A stretch of 44,814 bases of DNA from Stramenopiles sp. TOSAG23-2. Taxonomy: Eukaryota. The notes beneath the pieces are model-generated. The model worked only from the letters and a program-made list of their open reading frames with translations. It ran no database searches and was not told where the DNA came from. Below, one piece after another: positions 3,413 through 43,318 of the stretch (positions are counted from its first letter, which is position 1; every line of letters starts with the position of its first letter). A program made the translations under genes and the position numbers. Location: the NCBI GenBank assembly GCA_900128395.1, contig LT649291.1:1-44814 (forward strand). Reading direction: 5' to 3'.

Positions 3413-4759
3413 CTATGGACTCCAGGTTGGTATGGAATCATATGCGATACCATCAATTGGATCAATTTCTTGACCAAATTTAACTAACGGGGGAGGTAAA
3501 CCTTGTAAAGCTTTGACATCCACCGATGGTAAATTACGAACAATGTATGGGGATATCAGGGGATTCCCTGAAGCACCTCTTCCATGAGATGGAATCTTAT
3601 AGTTCGCTGCGCGGCGTTTTATTTTTCTAATTCGTGTTTGAGTTCTAGCTGAATGTTGCAGTACTGTTGATAATCCTTTTCCCTTTAATCCTTCATTGTT
3701 TTCTATTAATTTTGATGAAATATTTTTTGATATTCGTGGAGAAGTTTTTAATGATGCTAAGTTTCTTAATTTGACATTGTTGTTTGTCGTGCTATTGTTA
3801 ATATTATTATTGCTACTATTGCTACTATTTGTATTACTACTTATGCTTCCAGATGTTCTACTACTTATGCTGCCTTTACTATTCGTACTGATACATAATT
3901 CCAAATCAACGGATGCCATTTTACCTACTGAAGGCCTTAAAGGACTTAATCTATTTGTTTTTATCATATGTGCATCACGTGTTATTAAAATACAATTTGG
4001 CCTTGGTTTACCATTATTATGATAGATATTTGGATGGATAATTTTAGCATCCTTGTCAGGTTTATGGAAGCGTTCCCAAGCCTGTGCACGGATACTTGTC
4101 CCCACGGTCATAGCTTCTATAGTTGTATCCAGTATACCTTGAATACGAGGGAAAAAATTCTCTAGTAAAAAAAAATCTGCTGTACAAATCCTACCTTGTT
4201 TGTCTTTTAAAGCCAATTCAATTGTCGGCAAAAGTGCTATCAAATATTGTGTTGTCCCGTAAAAAATTAATGGTTTATTCTCGTCCGTGGACACAGCTAG
4301 CTGTTGCAAAAATCCACCACTTTCTAATAAAGGCTTTATCTCTAAATTGGCTTCATTAATCTCAATATTAACGTTAGCTTGCCCCTCCTTCTGCGATAAC
4401 CTAACGCCAAAAGGCGTCATTTGCCGTCTACCAGTAAAGCCGCTATGGTCAAATATACCTTGTGCTCTAAATGCTTTAGTTGAAAAAAATATTTTTTCCT
4501 CTTTCTCTTTATTTATTTTACCACCCCCGAATGATAACTTTGCAAATTTTTGACAGAAACGGCTACCAGCCCCATGCGACGTAGGCGATTTCTTTATAGA
4601 TTTTATACCACTTTTTCGTTCTTCTTCCTTCCGCTTTAAATATGATGCTTTACGCCTTTTAAAGTGTTCTTCGCCCGATCGCATTGCACTAGCACCATCA
4701 CTCCAATCAATATCTCTAGCCCATGCAAACGTTTCCGTAGCTTCCGTCAACCGTGTCAT
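3413..4759 (-). CDS. Hypothetical protein, possibly with a degenerate helicase C-terminal-like domain
   Basis: 448-aa ATG ORF in coding-like sequence, with a central globular segment and an Asn/Ser low-complexity tract. Confidence 0.65.
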   Translation of the reverse strand: MTRLTEATETFAWARDIDWSDGASAMRSGEEHFKRRKASYLKRKEEERKSGIKSIKKSPTSHGAGSRFCQKFAKLSFGGGKINKEKEEKIFFSTKAFRAQGIFDHSGFTGRRQMTPFGVRLSQKEGQANVNIEINEANLEIKPLLESGGFLQQLAVSTDENKPLIFYGTTQYLIALLPTIELALKDKQGRICTADFFLLENFFPRIQGILDTTIEAMTVGTSIRAQAWERFHKPDKDAKIIHPNIYHNNGKPRPNCILITRDAHMIKTNRLSPLRPSVGKMASVDLELCISTNSKGSISSRTSGSISSNTNSSNSSNNNINNSTTNNNVKLRNLASLKTSPRISKNISSKLIENNEGLKGKGLSTVLQHSARTQTRIRKIKRRAANYKIPSHGRGASGNPLISPYIVRNLPSVDVKALQGLPPPLVKFGQEIDPIDGIAYDSIPTWSP

Positions 4760-5589: not shown

Positions 5590-6873
5590 CTACTTTCCAA
5601 CAAAATACAACATTATATCCATTTCAATTTGTCTACCATATGACCCTAATTTCCACCAATTAAAATTGCGTATGATGGTTTTTAATTGTTGAAAATTCAA
5701 TGAATTAACATTTCTACTATTAATGATGTTGTTGCTATTGCTACTGTATTTTGATACTAAATATGATGTATATGGCACAACAACAGTCATTAGATCACGT
5801 ATGTCTTGAAATTCATCACCATTTGCAATATCTTTTGGTGGCGTTGATATTAAATAATCAGCTAATGATGATGTTGAAATATGTTGAAAAAATAAGCGAC
5901 GTTGTTTTACAGACATTGAATGAAAGTCAAATGAAACTGTATTGTCATATGTTTCATCATTTTGAACATTGCTAAATATGTACCTCCATTGATTTATATT
6001 CCATTTTCTTAAACTATTCATTACTTCCTGATCCATTGCAAATGATTCATTAGTATGATTAAAGACGATTGCACTATTTGCCGATGTTAAACCATTGAGA
6101 TTATTATTGTGAATATTATCAACATCTGCTATCATGTTATTATTACTGTTTTCATTATTATTTACATTTTTTTCCTTTCTGTTTTTATCCTTAGTGGTAG
6201 AATCATTGCCATAAATTGTGTAGTTTTCCCTATTCTCTAAAGATTCTAGATATTGTTCAACAGTCATTGATGATTCCTTGCTATTGTTTTCGTTAGCATC
6301 AGATGGAATAGTTTGAAATTTGAATGTTTCTCCTAAAGAATAGCTATATGATGGGAGAATTAATTTTTCAATATCTGTATCAGAAATATTCAAATTTGGT
6401 CGCATCCAACACATTTGCAAGCTTAGATTATTGCTGCCATTTGTAATTTCATCTGGGGTCATATAAATGCGGTGAGTAGACGGGGTTTGCAATGATGTTG
6501 ATACGTCTTTATCTTCATCATCCAGTAAATCTACTACACGATCAAAATCTGGATTCGCAAGAGACGAACTACTACTGCTGCTGCTACTACTACTAGTAGT
6601 AGTAGTAGTTGTTGTTGTTGTTGTTGAAGATAATTTCATTTTTTTTACAGCACTTTTTTCCGTCTGAAAACTATTTTTATAATCACCATTCTTAGAGCGA
6701 TTCTTCTTCTTATTATTATTTGCCTTAGATAATATACTTTGAAATTCTGCTGGCATTAAGCTTGCTAAAGATAACTTCCCTCCGTTGTTGCTGCTGTTAT
6801 TTTTCTTCTTCGTATTATTGGTATTATGATTATTATTATTTTGCATCACTACGTCGTTCCATGTTGTTTCCAT
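5590..6873 (-). CDS. Hypothetical protein with poly-Asn/Thr/Ser tracts
   Basis: 427-aa ATG ORF flanked by AT-rich spacers. No family recognised. Confidence 0.6.
   Translation of the reverse strand: METTWNDVVMQNNNNHNTNNTKKKNNSSNNGGKLSLASLMPAEFQSILSKANNNKKKNRSKNGDYKNSFQTEKSAVKKMKLSSTTTTTTTTTTSSSSSSSSSSSLANPDFDRVVDLLDDEDKDVSTSLQTPSTHRIYMTPDEITNGSNNLSLQMCWMRPNLNISDTDIEKLILPSYSYSLGETFKFQTIPSDANENNSKESSMTVEQYLESLENRENYTIYGNDSTTKDKNRKEKNVNNNENSNNNMIADVDNIHNNNLNGLTSANSAIVFNHTNESFAMDQEVMNSLRKWNINQWRYIFSNVQNDETYDNTVSFDFHSMSVKQRRLFFQHISTSSLADYLISTPPKDIANGDEFQDIRDLMTVVVPYTSYLVSKYSSNSNNIINSRNVNSLNFQQLKTIIRNFNWWKLGSYGRQIEMDIMLYFVGK
6567..6625. repeat. Compound coding trinucleotide microsatellite (poly-Thr/poly-Ser)
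   Basis: Consecutive (ACT)n, (GCT)n, (AGT)n and (TGT)n runs. Confidence 0.85.
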
Positions 6874-11658: not shown

Positions 11659-12095
11659 AAAAAAACATTCAAAAAGAAAATTATTCTAAGTAAATAATAT
11701 ATATATATAGATATTAAGACCGGACAATCTGCTGTATGTCAAAGAGGAGTGACGGGGATAAGCTAAAATGACTAATGAGATATGAGGATATGAGAACATA
11801 TATAACACATATGTAAAATGTAAATACATGTGTACATATGGTTTATGCTTCTATTAATAGTATACAACTATTTCGTACTATGTAGAATATATAACAACAA
11901 CAAGCAATTTTAATAATAACTACCACCAGTATTATTATTATTTAAAACAACAAAAAGATACAATTCGAACAATATATTTTATATTATCCAGTTATGTTAT
12001 ATTATATTAAATATTTACATTATACATATACATACACAAAATAAACAATATATTCAATTATTATAATTTAAATTATTACAATATTTCAAATCATC

Positions 12096-15059
12096 ATGGA
12101 CCAATTATTTGTAAAAATTGCTGCTGGGGAAATTCCATCGTCAAAAATTTATGAAGATTCACTAACATTTGCCTTTTTGGATATTAACCCGCTTTCAACA
12201 GGTCATTGCTTAGTTATTCCAAAAAAGAAATATACTAAAATTGATGAAGTTCCGCCTGCTACCGCCAAAGCGCTTGGTGAAACAGTTGCAAAAGTAGCAA
12301 ATGCAGTAAAAATAGCTACCGGATGTAGCGATTATAATGTGTTGCAAAACAACGGAAAAGCAGCCCATCAAGAAGTTCCCCACGTACACTTCCATATCAT
12401 ACCCAAAAATGAAAACGAAGGATTAGGAGTAAATTGGAAGTCGGATAAAATAAGCAACGCGGAAGAGACGCAAAAGAAAATAATTGATGCGTTGAATTCG
12501 TTAAAAGATAAAAATCGACTTTCAAGGGATGTTGTTCCAAGAAATTACCAAGTATCGTTAAAGCCAGATTTTACAACTTTCAAATTTGATGGTGTTGTGG
12601 TGATCGAAGTGGACGTACTTGTTGAAACAAGCGAAATAAAAATGCATGCACATGAAATCGAAAATATTGTAGGAACGTATTGGAGATGTGGAAAACAAGC
12701 AGATGGGAAACAAAATTTATCAGTCGAATATCTAGTAGAAGATAAAAGCATAAAATTAAAAGCTGCCAAGACGTTGTCAAAAGGCGCTTATTCCATTGAA
12801 TTGAAATTCCAAGGTACTTTGAATGATAAAATGGCGGGTTTCTATCGTTCGACGTACAAGACTAAAGATGGTGAGGACAAAGTTATGGGAACAACGCAAT
12901 TTGAAGCTGTTGATGCGCGACGTGCCTTTCCATGTTGGGACGAACCGTCATTTAAAGCTACTTTTGATATGTCGCTGATCATTGCGAACGAGAACTTGAC
13001 TGCATTGTCAAACATGCCTGTACGAAATAAGACCACGTTGGGAGATGGTTCAATTTTATATGAATATTGGCGAAGCCCAGTCATGAGCACATATTTATTG
13101 GCATTTATTGTTGGCGAGTTAGAAAGTATTTCTGCGAAAAGTGCAGGTGGCACTGACTTTTCTGTTTACACCACTCCTGGAAAATTATCACAGGCTGCAT
13201 TTGCATTAGATACTGGTGTAAAGGTTTTAAACTTTTTTGAAGAATATTTTGGAGTTCGCTATCCATTGCCGAAACAAGATATGGTTGGAATACCAGATTT
13301 TGCAGCTGGAGCAATGGAAAATTGGGGACTTATTACGTATCGTGAAACTGCATTATTTGCAACTGATGATTCTTCAGCTTCTGACAAACAACGTGTTGCA
13401 TATGTCATTGCTCACGAACTTGCGCACCAATGGTTTGGAAATTTAGTTACAATGGAATGGTGGAGTGATTTATGGCTGAACGAAGGATTTGCTACGTGGG
13501 CTGGTTGGTTAGCAATTGACAATATTTTTCCCCATTGGGATGTGTGGACAAATTTTACAAATGATGATGCTGGATATGCGATGAAAACAGATGCGTTAGC
13601 AAGTAGCCACGCTATCCAAGTTACAATCGGAGACCCAAGTGAAATTGATCAAGTGTTTGATGCGTTGAGTTATAATAAAGGGGCATCTATGATTAGAATG
13701 ATTGAATCACATGTTGGCTCCGATGTATTCCGCTTGGGACTAAGAAATTATATTGAGCGCCACCAATATTCAAATACGCTTACTGCAGACTTATGGACTG
13801 CAATTTCTGAATGTGCTGGGTTCAATGTTGCCCAAATCATGGATAGTTGGTGTCTCAAAGTTGGATTCCCAGTAGTAAAAGTTGAGAGTAGAGATGGCAA
13901 TGTTTTGAAATTGTCTCAGTCTCGATTTTTCTCAGGTGGCGAAGAAAGCAAAGAAGATCATCTTTGGTCAATACCATTACATGGCTGTAATGAAAAGGGT
14001 GAAGTAACGAGCGCTTTATTCAATAGCCAAAAGTGCGATTTTACTTGTGGTGGGGAATATGTGAAGTTAAATGCAGGCCAAACATCATTTGTCAGAGTTA
14101 ATTACGATGAAAAAGGATGGAAAGCATTGCAAGCACCTATTTCTTCCCTTGCGTTACCTGCAGTGGATCGTTTAGGTGTAATCATGGATGCTTTTGCATT
14201 GGCCAAAGCTGGCATGATGAGTACAGCCGTAACATTGGATCTTTGCAAAGCATATAAAAATGAAAACTGCTACCCAGTTTGGTCAGCACTTGCCAGTGGG
14301 CTGAGCGAAGTAACTGAAATTTGCAGTGGTGCTCCTTTTTTCAGTAAATACGAAGAATTTTGTGGTAGTATTTTTAGTGATTTAATGAGCACTTTGGGCT
14401 GGAATGCTGCGTCTGACGACTCAGATTTGACAAAGAAACTTCGTGCTTTGTGCTTAGGTGCAGCTGCTAAGTATGGCGACAAAGCAGTTGTCACTGAAGC
14501 ACTGGCCCGGTTCAAAGCATATGCAGATGGTGGGGAATTAGATTCTGATTTGCGTGGTGTTGTATTCTCCACTGCCGTTAAATTTGGCGGAGAAGATGAA
14601 TTTAAGAAAATGCTAGGAATTTTTGAAAAGGTTGAATCACCTCAACTAAAAATGAAAGCTTTGACTAGTTGTGGTCAAACACAAGATCCGGAACTGGTTA
14701 AACAATATCTTGAATATGCGTTTTCGGGAAAAGTGCGTTCAAATAATGTCTTGTATGTCTTGGCAACGTTAAGTTCAAATGCAGCTGCTAGAAATATTGC
14801 GTGGGAATACGTGAAAACAAATTGGAAAACGAAAATAACCCCAATGTTCGAAGGACAGCATAGTTTGTATGCTTATTGTGTAGTATTACCAATTAGAGGT
14901 TTCGTAACTGAGGAAAAGGCAAAAGAGGCAGAAGCATTTTTCAAAGAGAACCCTGTGCCAAGTGCTACTATGAAATTATCCCAAACGCTTGAAAATATGC
15001 GTACAAAAATCGCATGGTTAGAAAGAGAAAATGCAGCTTTGACATCTTATTTTACTTAA
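12096..15059 (+). CDS. Fusion of a HINT-type HIT hydrolase (aa ~1-135) with a puromycin-sensitive/M1 aminopeptidase
   Basis: HIT: FAFLDINPLSTGHCLVIPK and QEVPHVHFHIIP. M1: TQFEAVDARRAFPCWDEP, GAMEN, HELAHQWFGNLVT...WLNEGFA, SYNKG, ERAP1-C-like tail. Single uninterrupted ORF. Confidence 0.93.
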   Translation: MDQLFVKIAAGEIPSSKIYEDSLTFAFLDINPLSTGHCLVIPKKKYTKIDEVPPATAKALGETVAKVANAVKIATGCSDYNVLQNNGKAAHQEVPHVHFHIIPKNENEGLGVNWKSDKISNAEETQKKIIDALNSLKDKNRLSRDVVPRNYQVSLKPDFTTFKFDGVVVIEVDVLVETSEIKMHAHEIENIVGTYWRCGKQADGKQNLSVEYLVEDKSIKLKAAKTLSKGAYSIELKFQGTLNDKMAGFYRSTYKTKDGEDKVMGTTQFEAVDARRAFPCWDEPSFKATFDMSLIIANENLTALSNMPVRNKTTLGDGSILYEYWRSPVMSTYLLAFIVGELESISAKSAGGTDFSVYTTPGKLSQAAFALDTGVKVLNFFEEYFGVRYPLPKQDMVGIPDFAAGAMENWGLITYRETALFATDDSSASDKQRVAYVIAHELAHQWFGNLVTMEWWSDLWLNEGFATWAGWLAIDNIFPHWDVWTNFTNDDAGYAMKTDALASSHAIQVTIGDPSEIDQVFDALSYNKGASMIRMIESHVGSDVFRLGLRNYIERHQYSNTLTADLWTAISECAGFNVAQIMDSWCLKVGFPVVKVESRDGNVLKLSQSRFFSGGEESKEDHLWSIPLHGCNEKGEVTSALFNSQKCDFTCGGEYVKLNAGQTSFVRVNYDEKGWKALQAPISSLALPAVDRLGVIMDAFALAKAGMMSTAVTLDLCKAYKNENCYPVWSALASGLSEVTEICSGAPFFSKYEEFCGSIFSDLMSTLGWNAASDDSDLTKKLRALCLGAAAKYGDKAVVTEALARFKAYADGGELDSDLRGVVFSTAVKFGGEDEFKKMLGIFEKVESPQLKMKALTSCGQTQDPELVKQYLEYAFSGKVRSNNVLYVLATLSSNAAARNIAWEYVKTNWKTKITPMFEGQHSLYAYCVVLPIRGFVTEEKAKEAEAFFKENPVPSATMKLSQTLENMRTKIAWLERENAALTSYFT

Positions 15060-15595
15060 AGTTTCAGATGTACGCAAGAGGGTATTCACCAAGTCGCAAA
15101 ACACATTATTAATACGAGAAGCATATTAAAATTTTACGAAAGTATATATCACACACATGTGCATATTATTCGTACTTAACACACGAGAAGTGTAAAGTTA
15201 TATTATATTATAAAACATAGATTTTAACCATCATTATATATGATATATATTACGAAAGTATATATAAAAAATTCTCGTAATATATATTATATATATCATA
15301 CTTCGTATCATACGAGTAATATTTAAATACGAAAGTATTATGATATTTAATATTAGAAAAAATATGTCGTGGGTACAAAAATATATTTTTTTATAAAAAA
15401 AATGATAAAATTATATATATATATATACCGGTAAACTATAAATTATATATCATACGAATATTTTTATACCTTTTTTCAGCTCTCATTCACTCACAAGTCT
15501 CTTCTTTTTCTCTTTTTTTTCCCCCATTTCTTTTGTATGGATGTGCAGGGCATGTTTTTCTACCATGTCGAGTCAAAAATAATACGCCAACCAAT

Positions 15596-18500
15596 TTACC
15601 TATATTGGGGCGGCACCCATTCAAATGGTTCCGGTGCCTCTGGCTCCGGCCCGTCCTCCCCGATCGTTGGTGGTGCTTTAATATCTCTTAAATCTTCATC
15701 TGGTTCTCCATCTAAACTATCGGTTAAAACTAAAACACCAAGATTTCTTCTCGGATCTAAATCCTTACGTACTGGGCGATAACGTTGATTCTCTACAAAT
15801 GACATGAAAGATTGTTGTGAATATGTAACACGGCATGGGTTACTAACTTCAAAAGATTCTGGCTCCGGTTCTTTTTTCTTTTTCTCCTCCTCTTCCTTTT
15901 TCTTCTCTTCATCCTCTTTTGTCTCACCTTTCTCCTTCCCATCTCCAGTATTTTTTTCCACATCGTCTTTTTCAACTTCCATGGCCTCTTCTGTACTGCC
16001 ACCACTTGCTTCTTTTTCTTTCTTTGCTGCTTTCGCTTTCGCTTTCGATGTAATACTCAATACAGCCGTTTCCACTCTTTCCTTCTTTTCCTCAACTTTT
16101 TCTGTCAATGGCTCGGGGTATGCAAAAAGGGAAGGGCGTGCATCGCATTTCAATTTGAATGACGATGGTATTTTTAAGTCTTTATTCACCCCAATAACTG
16201 CTGTGGGGGTTAAAGTTAAGCTAAAGAAATGTAACAACGGATGCCAATACCAATGGTGACACCAAACGCATAAACCTACAACAGCACCCATTCTCAAAAA
16301 GCCAGATCTGGAAGTTAGGGCAACACACATATTTCTTCCACCAGCATCTAATATGCCACAAGCCATCAAAGCGCCAAATTTAGCCATGGTTGGTTGATGT
16401 TTGGATTTCACAGGATCTGTTAAAATTTCCAAGCATTTCTCGCGCAACTGTTTAGCTTCTTTTGATTTTGTGATCGATTCTTGCATCAACACTAATGACA
16501 ATGATAACAATGCCCCTTGCCTTACAAAGTCCACTGGGTCTTCCAACATTGGCGTAAGTAAATCTAATGCTTCTTTCGAAGGTTTGCCTGCACATGCAAT
16601 ACCAACTGCCATACAAGACCCGTAGCGTACATGTGGATTGTATGATTCTGATAATAAGGCAACCAATTGCGGAACTTCCTCTGGGCTACGGAACATAACG
16701 AAACCGAGCGCCATAACGGCCGTTCGCCTTACATCGTCGTTCACGTCACTAACTGCAACATGCAATAATCTGCGTATGGCGCTGTTGTTTGTCGTCCCAG
16801 CGTAAGCCATTGCGACCGTCCACATTGCACCAGAACGCAAAATGTAATCTTTGTCACTAATCAATTGCTCAATCAATGCATCGGCATTATCTTCCTTTCC
16901 AAACATGTTCAATGCTATGCATAAAGCAACGCCACGAATAATCTTTTCATGTTTCGTTTCATGTGCATATTGTAACATTTCTGTAATGGCAGTTTCATTG
17001 CCTTTTCCAAGCATGATAAGTCCAATTGCTATCGCAGATGCTTCTCCAGCTACTGCGCTATCATTGTACATTGTGTTTCTTAATAAAGCGTACAACTGCT
17101 CGTTGCCAGTTGCCATAGCAGCAAGACCAACGCCTAAACTTGCACCGTGTTGTACAACTTCTCTTGCGACCTCATTTTCATTTGCATTCGCAGTTTCGAT
17201 TGCATCACGTAGAAATGATGTCACTTCAGCATCGCCTTTTCCACCTTTGTTTGCATGGATTAAGCCAAGTGCATATAGTGCGCCACCTTCTTGGTATGGT
17301 GCGCTACTGACGCCACCTTGCGGTAAGTATGGACGTAATAAATTCATAGATTCCCCTAAATGCCCTTTGTGGACTACACCTAAACTTCCGATGGCACTAA
17401 AACGCGCCCATAAATTTGCTTTTCCTAACCAATCCAAATTTTTACGTAAAAATGAATCCACTGTAGTTCCACAATGCATATACCCGTGGCAAGTGATAGT
17501 AGCGCCGTGCAATACTGAATTTCTTTCTGGCAATGCTTCTTTAATTTTTTTCAACAATAATAAATCTGCTTTATTGTTTCGATATAAGAAATCTAAATAC
17601 AAATCAATGGAGATTCCATCGACTAAGATATTTCTTAACTGTTTAAACCGCGGCCATATTGGATCATCATCGGATGTTGGTAATAAATTGCTATTGTTGC
17701 CAGTGTCCGTATTATTTGTTACCTCTTCGCCATCTCCAGTAGCGGTAGTGGTATCAGTTTCATCATCTTTCTTCTCTTTCGTCTCTTCTTCTTTCTCCTG
17801 CATTTTTTTTTCTAATGGCGAACGTGGTAACGATTTTTCAACGTTCAACAAAAATTCTTGATTTTCATTTTCACATAAATCAAACCCAACTTGATATGCT
17901 ACTAAATGCTGACGTTCATCGGAGGACGAAAGCAAAACTTGCAATACATTTCCAACAGCAGGCGCGTCATCAAGGGCTTGTAAGCATTGGCAAAGACTTA
18001 CATAATCACAATCGTCAGATTCTTGATGAAGTTTTACAACAATTCGTAGTACTTCTTGTCGAAACGAGCGGGATACTACTAAGGTTTGCGCTACATCAAA
18101 TGCATATCTCAACATCTTCGCAACGTCGCCACTATCTTTAATTGCTGATTCTACAATATCAAGACGTTTTGACTCCAATGCAATACCAAGTGCTTGCTTA
18201 TACGACCCATCGTTAAAACAACGTTGAAACATTCTTTCAACAATTTTCTCAAGTCGTGGATCTAAAGGTGAGTTCTCATCGTTTTCTTCCCTGCATTGGA
18301 TGTAACGATCTACGCCCCGGGCAAGCATGGTTTCTACGTACTGGGTCTTCGCATCAATATCAAAATGCTTTCCCGCGCCAAGTGCTAAATTTAATGCATC
18401 GTCATAATCTTCCAAGTGATAAAAACATTTCGACGCAACTGCAGCTGCAAGCTCACAGAATTCAAAATTTTCTAGTTCTGACAAAGCTTCGATGGTATCA

Positions 18501-18649
18501 ACTTTTTGTGCAATTTCTGCCCAAAAAGTATCTACAACTGGATATAAAAGTTGCAAAGCTTTTGCTCTTACACGATCATCTTCATTATCCAAAAGGGCCA
18601 AAATCCCATTGGCACTTGATATTGGTAAACGTTTTGCTACTGTTGCCAT
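15596..18649 (-). CDS. PSMD1: 26S proteasome regulatory subunit RPN2/PSMD1
   Basis: SANGILALLD, FWAEIA, PC repeats (LLHVAVSDVNDDVRRTAV, LLSESYNPHVRYG), GILDAGGRN, C-terminal EPEAPEPFEW. Confidence 0.97.
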   Translation of the reverse strand: MATVAKRLPISSANGILALLDNEDDRVRAKALQLLYPVVDTFWAEIAQKVDTIEALSELENFEFCELAAAVASKCFYHLEDYDDALNLALGAGKHFDIDAKTQYVETMLARGVDRYIQCREENDENSPLDPRLEKIVERMFQRCFNDGSYKQALGIALESKRLDIVESAIKDSGDVAKMLRYAFDVAQTLVVSRSFRQEVLRIVVKLHQESDDCDYVSLCQCLQALDDAPAVGNVLQVLLSSSDERQHLVAYQVGFDLCENENQEFLLNVEKSLPRSPLEKKMQEKEEETKEKKDDETDTTTATGDGEEVTNNTDTGNNSNLLPTSDDDPIWPRFKQLRNILVDGISIDLYLDFLYRNNKADLLLLKKIKEALPERNSVLHGATITCHGYMHCGTTVDSFLRKNLDWLGKANLWARFSAIGSLGVVHKGHLGESMNLLRPYLPQGGVSSAPYQEGGALYALGLIHANKGGKGDAEVTSFLRDAIETANANENEVAREVVQHGASLGVGLAAMATGNEQLYALLRNTMYNDSAVAGEASAIAIGLIMLGKGNETAITEMLQYAHETKHEKIIRGVALCIALNMFGKEDNADALIEQLISDKDYILRSGAMWTVAMAYAGTTNNSAIRRLLHVAVSDVNDDVRRTAVMALGFVMFRSPEEVPQLVALLSESYNPHVRYGSCMAVGIACAGKPSKEALDLLTPMLEDPVDFVRQGALLSLSLVLMQESITKSKEAKQLREKCLEILTDPVKSKHQPTMAKFGALMACGILDAGGRNMCVALTSRSGFLRMGAVVGLCVWCHHWYWHPLLHFFSLTLTPTAVIGVNKDLKIPSSFKLKCDARPSLFAYPEPLTEKVEEKKERVETAVLSITSKAKAKAAKKEKEASGGSTEEAMEVEKDDVEKNTGDGKEKGETKEDEEKKKEEEEKKKKEPEPESFEVSNPCRVTYSQQSFMSFVENQRYRPVRKDLDPRRNLGVLVLTDSLDGEPDEDLRDIKAPPTIGEDGPEPEAPEPFEWVPPQYR

Positions 18650-19575: not shown

Positions 19576-20382
19576 ATGTCATCAACTGGAGCTGGGTATG
19601 ATTATGCACCAACTATTTATTCACCGGATGGTAGAATATTTCAAATAGAATATGCACAAAAAGCCATTGAAGCAGGTGGTACTTCTATTGGTGTGAAGTG
19701 TAAAGATGGTGTGGTATTAGCGAATGAAAAATTATTATATTCAAAAATGCTTGTTGAATCAAGTAATCGTGCACATTTTCCAATTGATCTCAATGCAGGA
19801 ATGGTTACATCCGGTTATTTGCCAGATGGTAGGCAATTGGCATTACGAGCAAGATCCGTCGCAAAACAATTTCGAGAAGCATATGCAATTCCTGTCATAC
19901 CAGAACAGCTAGCAGATCAAATGGCACAGTTTATACATGCATATACTTGTTATTATCAATTCAGACCTTTTGGCGCAAGTTTCATGCTTGCCGCGTATGA
20001 TGAAAATAAGAAAGAAGCTGAACTATACGGTGTCGATGCTGCTGGTGTTCCAATGCGATATTTTGGCCATGCATCAGGAAAAGGTGCACGTAGTGCAAAA
20101 ACTGAAATCGAACGTATGAAATTTTCAGAAAAAACTTGTAAGGAAGCATTGAAAGATCTTGCAAAAATTATGTCTTTAATACATGATGATGTTAAAGATA
20201 AACCGTACATGTTGGAAATGTCATGGATTTGTGAAGAATCTGGATGGAAATTTCAAATGATAGCGCCAGAAGTAGCAAAAGCATCTAGGGAAGCTGCAGA
20301 AAAAGAAATCGAAGAAGAAGATGAGGAAGATGATTCAGATTCTGAGGACGATGACGATGATGATGATGAAGATGAAGATTAA
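19576..20382 (+). CDS. PSMA3: 20S proteasome alpha-7 subunit
   Basis: MSSTGAGYD...YSPDGRIFQIEYA, RPFG, AKTEIE, LEMSW, acidic C-tail typical of alpha-7. Confidence 0.95.
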   Translation: MSSTGAGYDYAPTIYSPDGRIFQIEYAQKAIEAGGTSIGVKCKDGVVLANEKLLYSKMLVESSNRAHFPIDLNAGMVTSGYLPDGRQLALRARSVAKQFREAYAIPVIPEQLADQMAQFIHAYTCYYQFRPFGASFMLAAYDENKKEAELYGVDAAGVPMRYFGHASGKGARSAKTEIERMKFSEKTCKEALKDLAKIMSLIHDDVKDKPYMLEMSWICEESGWKFQMIAPEVAKASREAAEKEIEEEDEEDDSDSEDDDDDDDEDED

Positions 20383-24653: not shown

Positions 24654-27600
24654 TTATACTCTTAATTTTCCATCATCATTGGAATCACCACCACCACATA
24701 TCTCATGAGGTGTAACAATGTCACGTGCCAATTCGTTCATTTTTAATAAGCATTCTTTCAATGCAACTGGAAATGTCATTGAATCATATCGTATATTATG
24801 TTTTTTGCAGAGCTCCTGGACCATTGGTTGTACTAAATGCAAATTATGCCTTGGTAATTGAGGAAATAAATGATGTTCAATTTGATACTCTAAGCCTCCG
24901 TGCAAAATATGCTCCCAGTTTCTACCTTCGCAATCTATATTTCGTGTTGTGCGTAATTGAAATTCAAAAAATCCCATTTTTCTTTCTTCCTCTTTAAAAA
25001 AACTCTCTGTTGCAATATGGCTAACTAATAACTGCACGTGCAACGTCCCAACAATAATACATAGACATGCGAAATAAAAAAATCTATCTAGATTATTATC
25101 GAAAGTGCAAAACATAAGCAATGAGAATAGCATCCAATGAATCGACATGCCAACAACATCCATCATAGCTTGTCTTTTCTTAAAACAATTTATAGATGTA
25201 TGAATAATGGACAAACGGCAAAGATTAAAGCGTCCGATAAGCAATGCGAACGGTATTAAAGTACAATGCTGCATGGATACAAACGAATTCGAAACGTAGG
25301 CCAGGACGGAATTTTGAGTTGGATTGAATCGAGAAGGTCCTCTTAATTCTTTTTTTGTAATCATAAAAAATGGCAACATGTTGTACTGGGGATCTTCTCG
25401 TGGGCGGACTGTTATTGCGTGGTGTAAATTATGTTCTACCAACCACATATCGGAACTGATGCCAAAAACAACACTGCCAACAAACCATCCATACCAATTT
25501 ACCGGCCCCCTTTTATCGCCCAATGGAATAATACCATTGTGCAAAGCATCGTGTGATATAAATGCAGCTTGAACTAAACCCATTCCAACCAAAAAAGCGG
25601 ATAATATCATCGATCCTTTGTCCGGGCTATTACGAACTACAAGAAATACGCCAGAACAAATTAACGATAACCATATCAAATGTTTTTGCATGTAGTACAT
25701 ATGATTGCATTCAAAGTATCCTTCCTCCCATAATTGTTTGCGCAATTTGCGATAGTCTTCCGTCGCATCCATTTTAGATGTTTTTATTGGACATTCTAGC
25801 ATTCCAATTAAATACAACTTTAAATATTTCTTAACATATGCTTTATGAAAAGCTTCAAATTGATCACTTGCCTCGTATCCAGCATATTTCATAATAATTT
25901 CCTTACCACCAGGATGTTTCGATACAAACGTCGTAATATCATATACGAGACCATTTATAATTATCCATGCATCTTGTTCATTATCATGCTTTGATATTTC
26001 TTCAATTGAATGTTGTGATAAGCATTTTGATTGGTCGGTTTCGTGAAGTGCTGATGCGTCATCACCTTTACCTTCACCCTCATTATACTTCATTTCTTCC
26101 ACAAAACCCTCATGAACTTCAAAGCTTTTCGATTCTTCATTATTATGATAGACCGGTGCAACTACATCTACTACATCATCAGCTTTGTTTTCAAACATGG
26201 AGTTACCTTCAGCATTTGCGCCACATCCTATAAAATCCGACATTATTACCATCGCAATACTAACAAATGTACCGACTGGAAGAGCAATCCAAAAACTCCT
26301 TGTAAGTACAAACGTGATCCACCAACTCACCACCCAAACCCCCGCTTCAAGTGCACTGCGAAACGTGTACACCTCCCAATTGGCTACTGTCTCCGTGAAC
26401 CTTCCTTGAAGCAATGTACCCACGCGGCGTGTCAAGGACCAATACATAAAAAATCTCCCTGCAATCAAATAACCTGCACCAGCCATTGCCGTCAATAAAC
26501 TAGCAGTATAAACACTATGTGAATTATGAATAATAAAATATGATGAAGCTAATCCAAAATAACCAAAAATACATAATGGTACCAATCGTACTTCCTTCGG
26601 CTCCTCGGATGCACCATCATCTGTGCCAAGTGTATTCAATTCACCAAAAATGCAGATTAATATACCGGTCAATGTACCAGCTTGTACAGCTAATAAAAGA
26701 CTACCATATGCGGTATATGCACCAATAGTAACCCCTGTCCACACCATACTTTCAAGCGCACTTCGCATTGGATACGACGACCAATTTTCAAGTGTACAAT
26801 AAATTCTATCTTGTATGACACGACCTAACCTATTCGTTTTATCATATTGTAAAAAAATTCTAGCAACACTCAATAATAATGTTGCAGCAGATGCACATAT
26901 TACAGCTGCGAGTATTAGATCGTTGCAAATTGAATACGTCATTGTAAATAAATTGTATCCATAAATAGTTAAAGTGAATAAGGTTCCACTTTTGCGTGTG
27001 TCAAAGATAGCATCAGATTCCCTTTCTATAAAGGTTTGTTTCTTGCTGCTGCTGCTGATACTATTATTTTGAGATTGTTGTAAATTATTATTTTCACCAC
27101 TACTACTTTTAAAATTTCCATCAATATTATCAACAGCATTATTTGCAACTTTTAGATTATCAATGTCTTCATGTTCTCCAGCAGCCTCTAAACCAGCTCT
27201 ACGCAATAGAATTTCTACATTCTTAATGTACGGTGCAGTAGTATCACCAACAATGGCTACAAAACAACCTGCAAACGAGCCGCATAAAACACTTTGTAAA
27301 ACAGATTTTGAATGACCCCAGGTCCCAAAACCTGTGGAGCGTAGCGTATGAATCAGGGATGTGTTAGAGGGTGTCTTTTTTTTAGGTTTAGGGTAATAGA
27401 ATTTACTTACAGACGCCAAACCAAATACATAATTCAATAAACGAACGGAGCGTCTCGTCTTCCCAATTTTTTTTAACGGCATTTATATCTCCTACACGGT
27501 GATAAATTATAAAACCAATTTCTCTTGTCCCTTCCCAACGGACTAATATACCGGGAACCATTAGTAACGCAAAACCAGCGACTAAAGCAATAGCAAAAAG

Positions 27601-34749: not shown

Positions 34750-36375
34750 ATGCCACGTAGAAAATCAAAAGCATTACAAGGTAGTGGTATTCAACAAATG
34801 TTAAATGCTACAAAAGGTCCAATGACAAGGATCAAGAAAAAAAGAACACGTGTATTGCGTTTGCCTGACCCAATTGATAATCCCTTCTGTTCAGATAGAC
34901 AAATTGAAGATATATATCATGAAATGACTGCCAAACCAAAAATGATACAAGATTTAGATATTAAGCCACCACCGATGGACCCGTTGCATATATTGCCTAG
35001 TAGTGTATTTGCACCACATAAAGATTTATTACAAAGACGCTGGGCGGGGCAAAAAATATCTGATGTGCCAGATGGATTAAGTCATATGATAGGCTCAGCA
35101 ATGTCACATGGTGTTGAACAAGAGGATGATGTTGAGGCATGGCAACCTCCTGGTCAAGAGGAAGAAAGGGAAGAATATAAACCACCAGAGGTGGAAGAAA
35201 AGTTCGTACGCCGAGTGCCAAAAGTAGATGCAAGAGTCATAACGTTTGGTCACCGCCCCAGTTCAGCCTCACGACATTTTGACCCGTTAACTTTGAACAC
35301 TTCAACTGTACAATATAAGAAGAAAGGAAAAAAAATACCTCGTGTTGGTTTGTTAAGCTCTAGCGATTTACATAAAATGTTAGGACTGGCTGCAGCTAGA
35401 TATCGTTATCAAAAAGAATTCGAAGATGAGGAAGATGAAGCTTCCTCTGTAATTTATAATAGCAACGATAATATGAATGATAATATTAATAATAGTAGTA
35501 AATTAAATCAATCACAATCAACACCAGCATTAAATAGTAACAGTAATAATAATAATAATATGTCTTCAAGCAATAGTAATATGGCACCACCAATGCAGAC
35601 TCCCAAAATCGATGGATCAAGCCAACAAATGAGCTTAGCAATTGGAGTGTCAACACCAATTGTTAACAATAATAATAGCATTAATGAAATAAATAATAAT
35701 ACGAGTAGTGGAATGTTCAATTCAACGACAAAAAATTTGGTAAATCCAAATGAATTTGAAGCTATTAAAGCACCTGCATGGTTGGGTGGGGTATATGCTG
35801 TTGGTGGTGGGCGTAGTTTATTCAACAATAGAAAAGAAGATAAAAGTTTTAAAATACAACTAGAGAAAGATAATGATGATGGAAAATGGGATAATAAAAT
35901 ATATTATCCACCACCGCAACGTGCATTTAAAAGTGCATTGATGGAAGATGAAGTATCAAGTACTTCCACAAAACAGAAAATCTCAAAATATACAAAATTA
36001 TCAGCTGGTGCAATCATTACTCCTGTCTGCGAAGAGAGGCAATTTACAGATATGCTTGAAGCACGAGACGTTGAATCTAGAATAATGAAAAGTGCAAATA
36101 CAAATAAATCCGTGCGAGTGTATCAAAAAAATGGTGTTATATCAAGCTTGACACCACGTAAGACATTTTCACATGACATAAATGAAATTCAACGAACCAT
36201 CAAACGAAAGTATGGTGATAATATTTGGGATGTAGAAGATGAAGAAGGGGAAGAGGAGGAAAATTCTGATGAGGAAGAGGAAGATTATGATGTAGAAGGT
36301 AATGAGTTTAATGATCAAATGATGAATTCATCTATTAAAAGTTTAGAAGAGGAGAGTAGTACGAATACATTTTAA
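34750..36375 (+). CDS. Hypothetical protein
   Basis: 541-aa ATG ORF with Pro-rich N-terminus, Asn-rich middle and acidic end. Confidence 0.75.
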   Translation: MPRRKSKALQGSGIQQMLNATKGPMTRIKKKRTRVLRLPDPIDNPFCSDRQIEDIYHEMTAKPKMIQDLDIKPPPMDPLHILPSSVFAPHKDLLQRRWAGQKISDVPDGLSHMIGSAMSHGVEQEDDVEAWQPPGQEEEREEYKPPEVEEKFVRRVPKVDARVITFGHRPSSASRHFDPLTLNTSTVQYKKKGKKIPRVGLLSSSDLHKMLGLAAARYRYQKEFEDEEDEASSVIYNSNDNMNDNINNSSKLNQSQSTPALNSNSNNNNNMSSSNSNMAPPMQTPKIDGSSQQMSLAIGVSTPIVNNNNSINEINNNTSSGMFNSTTKNLVNPNEFEAIKAPAWLGGVYAVGGGRSLFNNRKEDKSFKIQLEKDNDDGKWDNKIYYPPPQRAFKSALMEDEVSSTSTKQKISKYTKLSAGAIITPVCEERQFTDMLEARDVESRIMKSANTNKSVRVYQKNGVISSLTPRKTFSHDINEIQRTIKRKYGDNIWDVEDEEGEEEENSDEEEEDYDVEGNEFNDQMMNSSIKSLEEESSTNTF

Positions 36376-39148: not shown

Positions 39149-42100
39149 ATGGAATCCCCCACTTTAACACCATCTGGTGGTGAGTTCTTATCGCAACTTG
39201 GAAAGACTTGGAATCTTATTCAATCAAAAGCAAAAGAACTTGACAAAGCGAAGAAAAAACAAAGAAAGACAGAGGAAGAATTGGTCTCTTCAAAAGAAAA
39301 CTGCGAGCACCTTCGTGCAAAGGAACAACAAGCGGTGTCTAAAATTGCTGAGCTTGAAAGCGCAACATTGGTTCTATCTTCAGAAAATTCAAGATTGAAA
39401 AAAGACACATACAATAAAGATGAACAAATAGAAGATTTAAGTAGCGACATTGCAACGAAAGAAAAAGCTTTACAAAAGAAGAAAAAAGAAGTATCTAATT
39501 TGGCTAAAGATAACCAAGAAAAAACGCATGAAATTAAATCTTTGACAAATACCAATGCAGAATTGGAAGATGCAGTGTTATCAATGAAAAAGGATTTTGA
39601 TAAAAAATGTAAGCAATGGTCTAAATTTGAAAGTGACGTGCAAGAGGACCACGCACGTACTCAAAATCAACTGAAGGAACTTCAAATAGAGAAAGAAGAA
39701 CTAGGTAGGCATCTATGGCATGTAATGGAAGAGTTAAAAGCATGCGAACGCCGTGTAGTAGAAATGCAACAAGGTGAAGAGGAAAATGGGAAAAAAGAAA
39801 CTAAATTAAATGAAGAAATTGAACGTTTGCAAAAGGAGATTCAAGATGGTAAATCTAGAGAGAAAGGTCAAGCGGAACAATTGGAAGCATTGAAAAAAGA
39901 AGTTGGAGAAACATTAACTGCAGCGCGTAAAAAACAAAATGAAACCATTGATGAATTAAACGGCGTGAAAAACATGTTATCAAGTACTATGCAAGCTAAA
40001 TCTCAATTGGAAGCGAATATGCAAACCATGAAACAAGATATGAAAAAGGTTAAAGATGTCGCAATGGATCAAGTGCAAAATACAAAAAGTGCATTTCAAG
40101 AAAAATTAAATAAAGCATTGGAAAAAGAAGAGGAGAAACGAAGTGCCATTGCCCGTGAGTTGCAAGTGACTATGGAGCAGCTAACTACTATGAAAAAGAC
40201 AAAACAAGCATTGAATGATACCATTGAAGGTAAACGTAACGAATTGAAAGCATCTAGAGATGAAATTGCTGCAGTACGTAAAGAAGTTGCTGAAATGTCA
40301 AATCGTTTACAACGAGCAACGAAGGAACAAGAATCTACTAGAAAAGCTATGGATAAAGAAGTTAAAAGCCGTGATAAACAAATACGAGAATTGAGACAAG
40401 AAGTACTGATTTACACTGATGAAAACAATCGTTTAAAAGAATTATCTAGCGTTTCAAATAAATTTATGGAAGATGATTTGAAAAACGCAAAAGCAAAATG
40501 CGAAGAGCTAGAAAAAAATAAGGATGAAATTACCAAGGAATTAAGTGAAACGAAGGAGATATTAAAAAATACAATGGAAACTATGAATTCATTTAAAAAC
40601 GAAGCGAAGGAAAAGATTGCTAGTGGTAAAAAATTAGCAGATGAAGCAACTAAAAAAGCAAAAGAGGAAAGTGATAAATCTGATCGTTTATCAACCATGC
40701 TTCATTCAATGGAAGAAAAATTGAAAAAAGCTGAATTTGATAAATCACAGCAAATTGGTTCGTTGACTGAAAACATTGGTGTACATACACAGCAACTAAA
40801 TAAACGTGTTGAGGAATGTAATCGTTTAAGAAATGATTTAGCGATGGCAAAAACACATAATGAAAGTTTACAAGAAACTGTTGAAAAACTAACATCACAT
40901 GTTGAAGAAGTTGAGAAAAAACGAGATGTGGAAGCAAACACATTAAGAGAATCACTTGATCGTTTGCAAATGACTGAAGAAGAAATGATCAATGCTAAAC
41001 AAACTGCCGATGAAACAGCAAATTTATTACAAGAACTACATAATGAAGTGAAAGATCAAAAACATTCAAATAAACAATTGCGCCAAAAATTGGATAAAGT
41101 TTTGCAAGAGAAAAAAGCTATTAAACAAGATGCAGCAGCACAAATCTTAGCCTTTTCAGAACGAAACAAAGACATTACAAATGAATTGCAAGATTTACTA
41201 GGTGTTAAAGCAAAATTGAGTGCAGAATTAAAGAAAAAAAGCGAAACTGTGGAAGATGCTGTTAATACGATTACTGAACTTCGTGGGGAATTGAGTAATG
41301 CAGAGGAAGATGCAGAGGCAACCATTGAGCAAATAAGCCAGAAACTAATGGCAGTTGAAAAAGACTTTGAAAGTGTACGTATTGCAAGAGAAAAAGAAGC
41401 TAGAGACAATGCCAAAGCTATGGCTCAACATACAGCACGATTAGGCCAATTACAAAAAGCACTTGACGAATCAAATTGGGAACTTGACACAATGAAAAGA
41501 GATCTAAATCAATCCAATCGTGATAAAGATGATCTAGAACAGAAAGTACAGCGTCTACAACGTGATAATGCTAGTCTTAAAAAAGTTGAAAGCAATATGA
41601 ATGGATTTTTAAAGAATATGATGGGTGAAAAAGAAAGCAAACATAGTCACTCGATGGGATTGACACCGCTGAGATTAAGTAAAACCTCTAGTCATGGAAG
41701 CTCCTCTAAATCATCTAGATCATTACAAAACAGTAGTAGAAGCTCAAATGGCGAGAATTCGGCAAGAAGTAGCTCCTCGGCCCCAGATAAATTACACACA
41801 AGAAATTCGTATACTCCAGATTCATCTTCTAAAAGTCATAAAAGCAGCAGTAGACCATCTAGTGGATCAAGGTCAAGACCATCCAGCGGTTCAAGGTCAA
41901 GACCATCATCGGCCAAACGTAATAAAGATAAACACCATAGCAGTAAAGATCGATATTATGATGAAAATGCATCATCCAAAAGTAATGGAGCTGACGATGA
42001 CTTAGTACTTCCAGCACTTCCTGCGGTTGGTGAAGATGTTGCAGCTAATGTAATACAACGTACAGCAGATTTCCTAAAGAGTCGTAACAAAAGCCGAAGT

Positions 42101-43318
42101 GGTCCGTTACACTCTTCGTCAGGTAATCCAAGGCCTTTATCAGCAAATAATCAACTAAGTGATGATGAAATTATATTTTCAAAGCGTCGTAGTAAACGAC
42201 TCAATTCGCTTGGCAAAGAAAACATTTCTGCTCATAAAATAAATCGCGCAAAAAGCGCAGCTGGACGTCGCAGACATGATCGTAATCAAAGTATATCATA
42301 TGATGCAAAAAATGGTCCATTGTCAAAAAAAGTACGCCCTTCAAGAAAAGATAGACCTAATTCTGCACCAATGCAGCAGACTCCAAAAAGAGTGTAAGTT
42401 GAAGAAAAATCATCTCATGTAATATAATTATTTCAGAAAAAACAACCAATATAGAATACACAACATAGAATGCCATCATGATATTTGACAAAATACATAT
42501 ATAATAAATAGATATATTAATAATGACTACAACATTTAGAGATAAACTGCATTTTAATATCATATTATATGATAGCACTATATATTTATAAAAAAAATAC
42601 AAAAATGTAAAAAATATTAACACAAATGAAATGTTTACAAAAAAAATTAATTATGATAATTGAAACAAATTTTCATTTTTTAACAAAAAACAAAAATACT
42701 TTTATATTTTTTACTTTTTTCCATGTGTGTCTCTTATATATATAATAATAAAATATAATATTAATGCGGATTTCGTATATTGATACGTATTTATTTTCAC
42801 TCTCTCCCATAATGCTTACAATTAACAAAACAAATTTCAGTGAAAATGAAGCATTGAAATTTGGACAAAATGTGGAAACGATAAAAAATTTATCCGAATC
42901 GTCTGATAATATTTCTCGTGAACTGCTGAAATCTACTGGTAACTATAGAACGGCTGGTATTCGCTCAGAAAAAAAGCCTGTAAAAACCTTTATTAGAACC
43001 CCACACAAGCCTGATGAAGATGAAGATCTGATTGTAAACGATGATGAACTGGAAAGTAGTGGTGAATCTTTCGATGAACGCGTAGAGCGAGTAATATACA
43101 ATCCGAAACAGAGAAGGTACAACAACAATAGATACGATAGACCGTCAAGAAGCAGAAATACAAATACGGTGCTATCCACTAAACAAAATCAAGCAAACAC
43201 TCCTGGTGGGGTTAATCCATATGATTTGTTAGGCAAATACAATAATTCACGAGATGAATATGCTGATTCTTATTATAACAGTAATACTCCAAGAAATTTG
43301 TCTCCCACAATGTATTAA
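39149..43318 (+). CDS. Long coiled-coil protein with Ser/Arg-rich tail; predicted join(39149..42393,42841..43318), 1240 aa
   Basis: About 820 aa of heptad coiled coil, then SRPSS repeats. GTAAGT donor at 42394 and TTTCAG acceptor at 42840 join the 42764 ORF in frame. Confidence 0.75.
42394..42840 (+). other. Predicted spliceosomal intron, 447 nt, phase 2
   Basis: GTAAGT donor, very AT-rich body, TTAAC branch-like site at 42822, TTTCAG acceptor. The join GT+T gives Val followed by ENEALKFG. Confidence 0.7.

Follow-up and report, generated by a model that had tools for sequence, protein, structure and literature searches.

The window, the 44,814-nt stretch of DNA that we analysed, contains one open reading frame (ORF) in its ORF listing that runs with zero internal stops through a histidine triad (HIT) domain and an M1 peptidase (Table 1). 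The earlier note had described an intact HINT-like domain with an HVHFH motif, followed directly by a full M1 peptidase with GAMEN and HELAH; ORF and Pfam analysis bore this out, with every position exact and three M1 Pfam domains. Pfam scores of all four domains lay far over the curated cut-offs (21.5 bits for HIT), while NCBIfam profiles gave sub-threshold matches only (HinT and pepN) against the fusion protein. Methionine is absent between residue 1 and residue 183, so the M1 part lacks a separate start codon. The AlphaFold2 (AF2) model of the fusion protein had a mean pLDDT of 91.5 and placed a helix at residues 122–135. Docking of the HIT part (1–135) on the M1 part (140–987), run without controls, scored 0.00 and is evidence neither way. 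Eight other-frame or antisense ORFs of 61–103 amino acids lie inside the gene and were taken as chance ORFs in a coding region.

Table 1. Features of the HIT–M1 fusion gene; positions are those of the window.
Feature	Residues	Position (nt)	Strand	Basis
Whole fusion ORF (P0001)		12096..15059	+	987 aa + stop; matched by ORFs of metagenome contigs L001 and L002
HIT (Hint-type) domain including C-terminal helix	1 to about 133	12096..12494	+	Pfam, PDB matches, AF2
Pfam HIT core	11–106	12126–12413	+	PF01230, E 7e-28
His37, N-terminal catalytic-support histidine of canonical Hint enzymes	37	12204..12206	+	Motif position; role per PMC7157772
Histidine triad H96-V-H98-F-H100 (HVHFH)	96–100	12381..12395	+	HxHxHxx motif
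Short variable linker	about 134–140	12495..12515	+	Alignment of fused proteins; P0365 start
Peptidase_M1_N beta-sandwich	147–334	12534..13097	+	Pfam, E 4e-49
M1 catalytic domain (Peptidase_M1)	369–585	13200..13850	+	Pfam, E 3e-85
GAMEN	405–409	13308–13322	+	Exopeptidase motif within M1 catalytic domain
HELAH	from 440	13413–13427	+	Zinc site within M1 catalytic domain
E463, third zinc ligand	463	13482–13484	+	In LWLNEG, M1 catalytic domain
ERAP1_C helical domain	655–969	14058..15002	+	Pfam, E 3e-84

Motifs and structural matches assign the HIT part to the canonical Hint branch, with a predicted activity as nucleoside phosphoramidase or acyl-AMP hydrolase. The triad signature HxHxHxx, in which x is hydrophobic, reads H96-V-H98-F-H100-I-I; H98 and H100 are invariant in six of six aligned sequences and H96 is kept. 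Upstream, His37 lies in TGHCLVIPK, and the GH is retained in all five fused sequences having the region. Judged by motif position, His37 is equivalent to H39 of Escherichia coli HinT, the N-terminal histidine that supports the third triad histidine (PMC7157772). The best PDB matches were Hint-type (3ksv, 6e-33; 6iq1, 'adenosine 5'-monophosphoramidase', 2.5e-26), with weaker matches to HINT1 (about 1e-11 to 1e-12) and FHIT (2.6e-7); none of the 44 PDB matches of this part was a GalT entry.

The M1 part has the make-up of a complete puromycin-sensitive/ERAP-type M1 aminopeptidase and is predicted to be active. Residues 140–985 aligned with puromycin-sensitive aminopeptidase (chain 35–891) at an E value of 5e-206, and the domains follow the full-length order M1_N, catalytic, ERAP1_C in Pfam. 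Both the GxMEN motif (here GAMEN) and the HExxH-x18-E zinc site (H440-E441-x-x-H444 plus E463) are invariant in six of six sequences.

The fusion is genuine, a single gene in a single transcript region, and does not stem from faulty assembly. The ORF recurs in two metagenome contigs from the window's species, intact at 987 amino acids in one (L001, 98.0% nucleotide identity to the window) and running 981 amino acids, open at the contig end, in the other (L002, 99.2%). These contigs were the only 2 of 16 loci in the metagenome DNA scan with the fusion, and none of the 16 yielded a diverged fused relative as DNA. The earlier note had proposed looking for transcripts across the HIT–M1 junction, and RNA contigs bridged it in three of four marine metatranscriptome runs, from three studies (X10, 12371–12725; X16, 12396–12565; X2, 12444–12614), with no splice joints or indels in the bridging contigs. 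RNA depth was zero in all four runs in the intergenic bins flanking the ORF; the first 149 nt of the ORF (12096–12244) also had no RNA cover in the four runs, from which no conclusion is drawn. It is hardly credible that the contig was assembled as a chimera, or that a stop codon between two genes was erased by a sequencing error, given the same ORF in the window and both contigs, junction-spanning RNA from three studies and the presence of the fusion in diverged relatives.

At least nine diverged relatives have the same fusion, at 58–71% full-length identity to the window protein. The HIT plus M1 Pfam architecture occurred in 4 of the 120 matches listed in one protein search and in 6 of the 49 matches of a second, and 27 of the 466 proteins collected had both domains. 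Searching a representative library with residues 1–250 gave 12737 matches; among the 150 listed were only junction-spanning fragments (P0163, P0164 and P0191) and standalone HITs, since the 50% clusters of the full-length fused proteins are represented by other sequences. A Pfam scan of 10 of these 150 found HIT with M1_N in one (P0164). The ESM Atlas showed no large cluster with the HIT–M1 architecture, its best scores of 0.76 (N-terminal 260 residues) being leads only. Among relatives sharing 5-residue words with the protein, we saw no independent HIT plus M1 fusion elsewhere (for example, in bacteria).

Separate phylogenies of the two domains, another check that the earlier note had put forward, each gathered the fused members into one clade. 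Support was UFboot 100 and SH-aLRT 95 for the fused HIT domains (n = 7) and SH-like 100 for the fused M1 parts (n = 6, FastTree), and the trees thus fit a single old fusion. The only non-fused rows inside the fused clade were one fragment and one frameshifted copy. In a 16-row clade (SH-like 100, FastTree only), the M1 part also falls together with unfused M1s from the streptophyte algae Klebsormidium, Mesotaenium and Closterium; a single M1 gene tree cannot place the organism taxonomically.

Across the fused proteins, mean pairwise identity was 70% for HIT, 60% for M1_N, 82% for the M1 catalytic domain, 61% for ERAP1_C and 39% for the linker. The HIT domain is thus conserved as well as the flanking M1 domains, and both domains are constrained. 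Together with the persistence of the fusion down to 58% identity, this conservation shows that HIT function has been under selection; it does not show the same for coupling. The 39% figure describes the linker region 118–146, which has Ala/Gly-rich insertions in two relatives (P0004 and P0005). This poor conservation could suggest a polyprotein, made as one chain and cut in the linker to release separate Hint and M1 enzymes. We consider that very improbable: the linker is only about 7 residues long in the window protein, a conserved cleavage motif is absent from it across six aligned sequences, and no stretch there drops below a pLDDT of 50 in the AF2 model.

Short, poorly conserved and variable in length, the linker is as expected for read-through of two neighbouring genes, and a substantial possibility, though one we would not bet on, is that the fusion is real and both domains are active with no shared substrate. 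Within a compact genome, the stop codon of a small upstream Hint gene would then have disappeared, and the product would have been retained because it is harmless, because HIT dimerizes or stabilizes the peptidase, or because the fusion ties two expression levels together. The junction coincides exactly with where each partner natively ends or begins: in a standalone sister HIT (P0165) the last residue corresponds to roughly residue 133, and an unfused sister M1 (P0365) starts at the junction, 5 residues before a shared RLxRxVxP motif. The low-complexity character of the variable linker and the compactness of the genome (22 ORFs of at least 180 amino acids in 44.8 kb) agree with such an origin. 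So do the other 43 of the 49 matches in the second protein search, in which HIT was fused to different partners (GST, dienelactone hydrolase, RNase H, FKBP, methyltransferase and others). Some of these may be merged gene models; with a HIT subfamily joined to so many unrelated partners, a HIT fusion is weak evidence for a specific pathway link. Set against a chance union are the persistence and HIT conservation described above, and the two domains were never seen re-split by any lineage inside the fused clade.

Our tentative reading, somewhat short of an even chance, is that this transcribed, single-origin fusion is a cytosolic bifunctional hydrolase with both domains in one clean-up route. 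We infer that both domains are active and work in that route; coupling of the two active sites on one substrate is suggested by the fusion itself. A canonical Hint-type domain is joined through a linker of ~7 residues to the native N-terminus of an M1 peptidase. The M1 part would trim a substrate from its N-terminus until it reached a nucleotidylated amino acid, such as N-adenylyl-lysine or an adduct of the aminoacyl-AMP type, and the HIT part would then cut the P–N (or acyl-phosphate) bond, giving AMP and a free amino acid. It is plausible that conjugates of nucleotides with peptides or amino acids are cleaned up in these two steps. Because HIT proteins are obligate homodimers, the fusion should also render the peptidase dimeric.

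Published enzymology gives this order of steps some footing. A peptide-nucleotide was left uncut by HIT enzymes until aminopeptidases had stripped the peptide (PMC7157772). N-adenylyl-lysine is hydrolysed by Hint enzymes, with a biological role still called unknown in passages of one review, where early reports of natural N-adenylylated peptides are described as 'not widely confirmed' (PMC6429109); the natural abundance of such peptides is doubtful. The two-step enzyme that the earlier note proposed therefore stands in part: its step order fits PMC7157772 and both motif sets are intact, but its extension to detoxification of Trojan-horse compounds fared poorly.

That extension would make the protein a defence against bacterial microcin-C-like antibiotics, the M1 part stripping the carrier peptide and the HIT part destroying the toxic aminoacyl-adenylate mimic. 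The published sequence of events does match, with aminopeptidases acting before HIT hydrolysis of the processed compound (PMC7157772). Leu110 and Trp114 are invariant in a C-terminal extension of the HIT part, and these two residues might correspond to the Leu and Trp of the C-terminal loop that was modelled as the amino-acid pocket of MccH (PMC7157772). The MccH clade, however, is marked by HxHxK, Phe replacing the N-terminal His and an extra Glu (ExxxxxHxHxK) (PMC7157772), and all three signature residues are absent here: the third triad histidine, H100, is invariant where that clade has Lys, His37 is kept where it has Phe, and Ala90, six residues ahead of H96, occupies the Glu position. Furthermore, processed microcin C stayed largely intact when exposed to the canonical HinT of E. 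coli and H. minutum, which did hydrolyse epsilon-K-AMP, and neither enzyme conferred resistance (PMC7157772). The missing MccH signatures and the very slight cutting by the tested canonical HinT weaken the microcin version. With neither a signal nor a targeting peptide, the fusion protein would not come into contact with prey inside a food vacuole. As for the bacterivory that this version presupposes, the window shows only a flagellate (ODAD1 gene), found in seawater. We regard microcin detoxification as quite improbable.

A broader but unlikely extension of the clean-up reading is a dedicated pathway disposing of nucleotidylated peptides, in which M1 would trim to the modified residue and Hint would remove the nucleotide. 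Its substrates could be Lys/His adducts, adenylylated or guanylylated, that arise from ligases, capping enzymes or aminoacyl-adenylate side reactions, or else peptide-nucleotide toxins that have been imported. Hint enzymes are found across virtually all life, and their chemistry has been thoroughly studied. Were such a pathway true, it would identify the class of physiological substrates long sought for Hint enzymes in every organism, with the natural HIT–M1 fusion as the Rosetta stone for Hint substrates. Few clues to a functional partner of Hint come from sequence alone, and a long-kept fusion with both active sites intact is one of them. It points to cytosolic peptide trimming as a setting for Hint activity, and the protein is a ready-made subject for finding out if the processing of peptide-nucleotide conjugates takes two coupled steps. 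Even if the domains prove independent, it would still be a clean example of a lineage-specific hydrolase with two functions, in marine protists that are abundant and uncultured.

The earlier note did not know this architecture from characterised proteins, and we likewise found no description of a HIT–M1 aminopeptidase in the literature searched. Each half has close counterparts. With NPEPPS (PDB 8sw0 and 9o5k) the M1 part shares end-to-end alignment, three Pfam domains, GAMEN, HExxH-x18-E and the lack of a signal peptide, but NPEPPS has no HIT domain, whereas the present protein carries a Hint-type domain of 133 residues ahead of the native N-terminus. The HIT part has the triad, N-terminal histidine, GLxVxW tail and final helix in common with Hint1, Hnt1 and HinT; those are small standalone proteins of about 110–160 amino acids, whereas here the C-terminus, which in Hint enzymes helps to set substrate specificity (PMC7157772), continues into an 850-residue peptidase. 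In bacteria, MccH and cellular aminopeptidases form the same enzyme-class pair with the same order of action (PMC7157772), but as separate proteins with an HxHxK HIT; the present case is one polypeptide, canonical HxHxH, in a eukaryote. PDB matches of the HIT part also included 1ems, a 'NIT-fragile histidine triad fusion protein'. NitFhit is a known 'Rosetta stone', in which a HIT-superfamily enzyme and an unrelated hydrolase form one protein in certain lineages and two in others. There a Fhit-branch HIT lies at the C-terminus of a nitrilase-family partner, whereas here a Hint-branch HIT lies at the N-terminus of a metallopeptidase.

The fusion of a Hint-type HIT domain to an M1 aminopeptidase is real, on three lines of evidence: contigs from the same species, RNA contigs and diverged relatives. 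Translation and Pfam bore out the claim that one ORF encodes a HIT domain and then a full M1 peptidase (see table), and the HVHFH, GAMEN and HELAH motifs lay, on re-check, exactly where the earlier note had placed them. Methionine is absent between residues 1 and 183, so separate translation of the peptidase would cost part of the peptidase's own first domain. The gene also contains eight short ORFs in its other frames, which were taken as chance.

A scan of metagenome contigs gave 16 loci, including two contigs from the window's species, L001 and L002 (98.0% and 99.2% nucleotide identity), which keep the ORF at 987 aa and 981 aa, respectively, the L002 copy running off its contig. The stretch was present in 20 of the 23 public runs listed; they span 9 studies, are without exception of seawater or marine origin, and include 11 recorded as RNA. 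RNA across the junction, which the earlier note had named as a check, was found: when contigs from four RNA runs (four studies) were compared with the window, three runs had a contig that crossed the HIT/M1 boundary (nt 12500/12513) and extended >31 nt to either side of it, and coverage in the fourth (X5) began only at 12768, past the boundary. These contigs speak to presence and continuity, not transcript ends, and do not reach the ORF's first 149 nt. No joints or indels were reported in contigs of the four runs, and intergenic bins 11824-12195 and 15296-15400 had zero depth in all four.

Features of the fusion protein (residues) and of the window (nucleotides)
Feature	Position	Strand	Remark
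Fusion ORF	12096-15059	+	987 aa, no internal stops
HIT	residues 11-106		Pfam, far over threshold
Peptidase_M1_N	residues 147-334		Pfam, far over threshold
Peptidase_M1	residues 369-585		Pfam, far over threshold
ERAP1_C	residues 655-969		Pfam, far over threshold
RNA contig X10	12371-12725		poly-A run; bridges junction
RNA contig X16	12396-12565		oligo-dT run; bridges junction
RNA contig X2	12444-12614		bridges junction
Proteasome Rpn2	15596-18649	-	directly downstream of fusion gene
Proteasome alpha-type subunit	19576-20382	+	divergent to Rpn2
942-aa ORF	24654-27482	-	cytochrome b5 and fatty-acid desaturase domains, residues 493-901 only
ORF without Pfam family	275-2812
ORF without Pfam family	3413-4759
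ORF without Pfam family	5590-6873
ORF without Pfam family	34750-36375
ORF without Pfam family	39149-42397

The architecture is present, unannotated, in public protein sets. Searching with residues 1-300 returned it in 4 of the 120 matches listed (database proteins P0002-P0005; 52-62% identity, 99-100% cover), a search for longer proteins containing the window HIT domain in 6 of 49, and phmmer found both HIT and M1 in 27 of 466 collected proteins (cluster members counted). P0007 is an N-truncated fused copy starting inside the triad, and P0163 and P0164 are fragments across the HIT/M1 junction. The window protein sequence itself is already in several public collections, and its 90%-identity cluster (window protein or close strains) holds four further 987-aa variants with 1-2 differences, none in the HIT domain. 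One fused relative bears the automatic JGI label 'aminopeptidase N/diadenosine tetraphosphate (Ap4A) HIT family hydrolase'. P0004 has a 48-residue hydrophobic Phe/Ser-rich insertion in ERAP1_C (columns ~729-776 of A1, the alignment of fused proteins), absent from the other five. The probable cause is an intron retained in the predicted gene; if so, its lineage would have introns in the fusion gene and the window copy none.

Separate phylogenies of the two domains, also suggested in the earlier note, each recovered one fused clade. Seven fused HIT domains grouped together (UFboot 100/SH-aLRT 95; IQ-TREE, 60 HIT domains), with standalone P0165 and P0314, a HIT-dienelactone hydrolase, as sisters (89/83). 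P0129 (a fragment matching P0122 exactly), P0315 (frameshifted) and P0187 (truncated) were excluded from that tree; a 201-row FastTree placed P0129 and P0315 within the fused clade and P0187 adjacent to it, with the standalone sisters. P0315 (318 aa) has a normal HIT start and then twice runs into out-of-frame-looking sequence; a frameshifted contig from a fused gene is the likeliest explanation, rather than a standalone HIT. Six fused M1 parts likewise formed one clade (SH-like 100; FastTree, 96 M1 sequences, 90 of them unfused and drawn from 216 by a redundancy filter), with unfused P0365 and P0384 as sisters (93), followed by streptophyte-algal M1s (16-row clade, 100). A single old fusion, then descent, is the simplest reading.

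The junction bears the pattern expected if the stop codon of an upstream gene is lost and translation continues into the gene next to it. P0165, the closest standalone HIT protein, ends directly after the helix equivalent to residues 122-133 (modelled by AF2 as 122-135 in the fusion), and P0365, the closest unfused M1, starts 'MSSNPYRLPRSVLP', five residues ahead of the motif aligned with 'RLSRDVVP' (residues 141-148), so that both native ends are linked by ~7 residues. The spacer is variable among fused relatives, which have acquired Ala/Gly-rich insertions.

Compared pairwise, the five fused proteins of full length average 70% identity in the HIT core, 39% in the tail and linker, 60% in M1_N, 82% in the catalytic domain and 61% in ERAP1_C, indicating that purifying selection on the HIT domain is no weaker than on the M1 domains outside the catalytic one. 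His37, the triad, GAMEN, HELAH and Glu463 are conserved across the fused alignment. The M1 part aligned over its full length with puromycin-sensitive aminopeptidase (E 5e-206), with weaker matches to ERAP1, aminopeptidase A/N and IRAP. In a PDB search, the HIT part best matched 3ksv (6e-33) and 6iq1, an adenosine 5'-monophosphoramidase (2.5e-26), then HINT1/2 (around 1e-10 to 1e-12) and FHIT (2.6e-7); by these similarities it belongs to the Hint branch. The whole-chain AF2 model (46-row alignment) was confident, at a mean pLDDT of 91.5 and pTM of 0.85, with no segment under pLDDT 50. No targeting peptide was found ahead of the HIT domain. Three cluster members start further out, and their stretches before the conserved Met differ from one to the next and resemble leader sequence that has been translated; we therefore infer a cytosolic location.

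At 27-42% GC per kb, the window is AT-rich, and it is densely packed, with 22 ORFs of at least 180 aa in 44.8 kb that need no splicing. The encoded proteins with Pfam matches are eukaryotic (casein kinase II beta, fatty-acid hydroxylase, a CBS-domain protein, Rpn2, the proteasome alpha subunit, a protein of the Abhydrolase_2 (phospholipase/carboxylesterase) family, cytochrome-b5 desaturase, WD40 and BTB proteins) and, with the outer-dynein-arm docking protein ODAD1, indicate that the host is a flagellated eukaryote. Five long ORFs (427-1082 aa) matched no Pfam family at E ≤1e-5, and the first ~490 residues of the 942-aa ORF are likewise without a Pfam match. Three protein-breakdown genes (M1 fusion, Rpn2 and alpha subunit) lie inside 8.3 kb, a clustering that may be chance. 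Rpn2 also adjoins the fusion gene in L002, from the same species. The two genes have convergent 3' ends, and window 15249-15405 does not align with L002 3146-3644; this unalignable spacer of unequal length (~155 nt in the window against ~500 nt in L002) marks an intraspecific indel polymorphism.

We found no published description of a HIT-M1 aminopeptidase architecture in literature judged by titles and abstract openings. It is a new domain architecture built from known kinds, solidly real and conserved; no independent fusion turned up in our protein searches, which reach relatives sharing short words with the window protein. Two intact, conserved catalytic centres lie in one polypeptide with an expressed junction; all further function, including any link between the HIT and M1 activities, we only infer. 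Hint enzymes are described in PMC6429109 as cleaving P-N bonds of AMP/GMP-amine compounds, including N-adenylyl-lysine, with a biological role called unknown, and the conserved fusion offers a testable lead on Hint function.

Tentatively, we favour a clean-up enzyme, dimeric through its HIT domain, for nucleotidylated peptides and amino acids from protein and nucleotide metabolism. The M1 part, as a broad cytosolic aminopeptidase, would trim the peptide first, and the Hint domain would then act on the nucleotide-bearing product. The main rival, a real possibility if a less favoured one, holds that HIT and M1 act independently and that co-expression or dimerisation accounts for retention of the fusion. 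Consistent with this, 43 of the 49 longer proteins containing the window HIT domain join same-subfamily HIT domains to many unrelated partners, which weakens pathway inference from any HIT fusion. Close relatives occur in HIT-HIT-GST and HIT-GST proteins (P0008, P0177, P0316) and in 450-461-aa proteins with a HIT domain and a long tail without Pfam match (P0166, P0171); some of these other fusions may be merged gene models.

In E. coli, the peptidases PepA, PepB and PepN process microcin C. Detoxification of microcin-type compounds, as the earlier note proposed, is improbable for the fusion, weakened by direct comparison with MccH, the HIT enzyme inactivating processed microcin C. In PMC7157772, the sole HIT clade shown to do so has HxHxK, Phe for the N-terminal His and an added Glu; unlike that clade, the fusion protein has HxHxH, His37 and Ala90. 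The canonical HinT enzymes assayed there were active on epsilon-K-AMP, but processed microcin C came through largely uncut and no resistance resulted. In the fusion protein, the HIT domain continues into a C-terminal extension whose invariant Leu110 and Trp114 may resemble the pocket modelled for MccH; host bacterivory is not established.

Clean-up of nucleotidylated peptides has a parallel in the microcin C system. In PMC7157772, no HIT enzyme cut the intact peptide-nucleotide; peptide removal by enzymes named there just as 'aminopeptidases' is required, and a HIT phosphoramidase then cleaves the released aminoacyl-adenylate mimic. A fusion joining Hint to a broad cytosolic aminopeptidase would serve just this sequence of steps, in which the peptidase acts before HIT.
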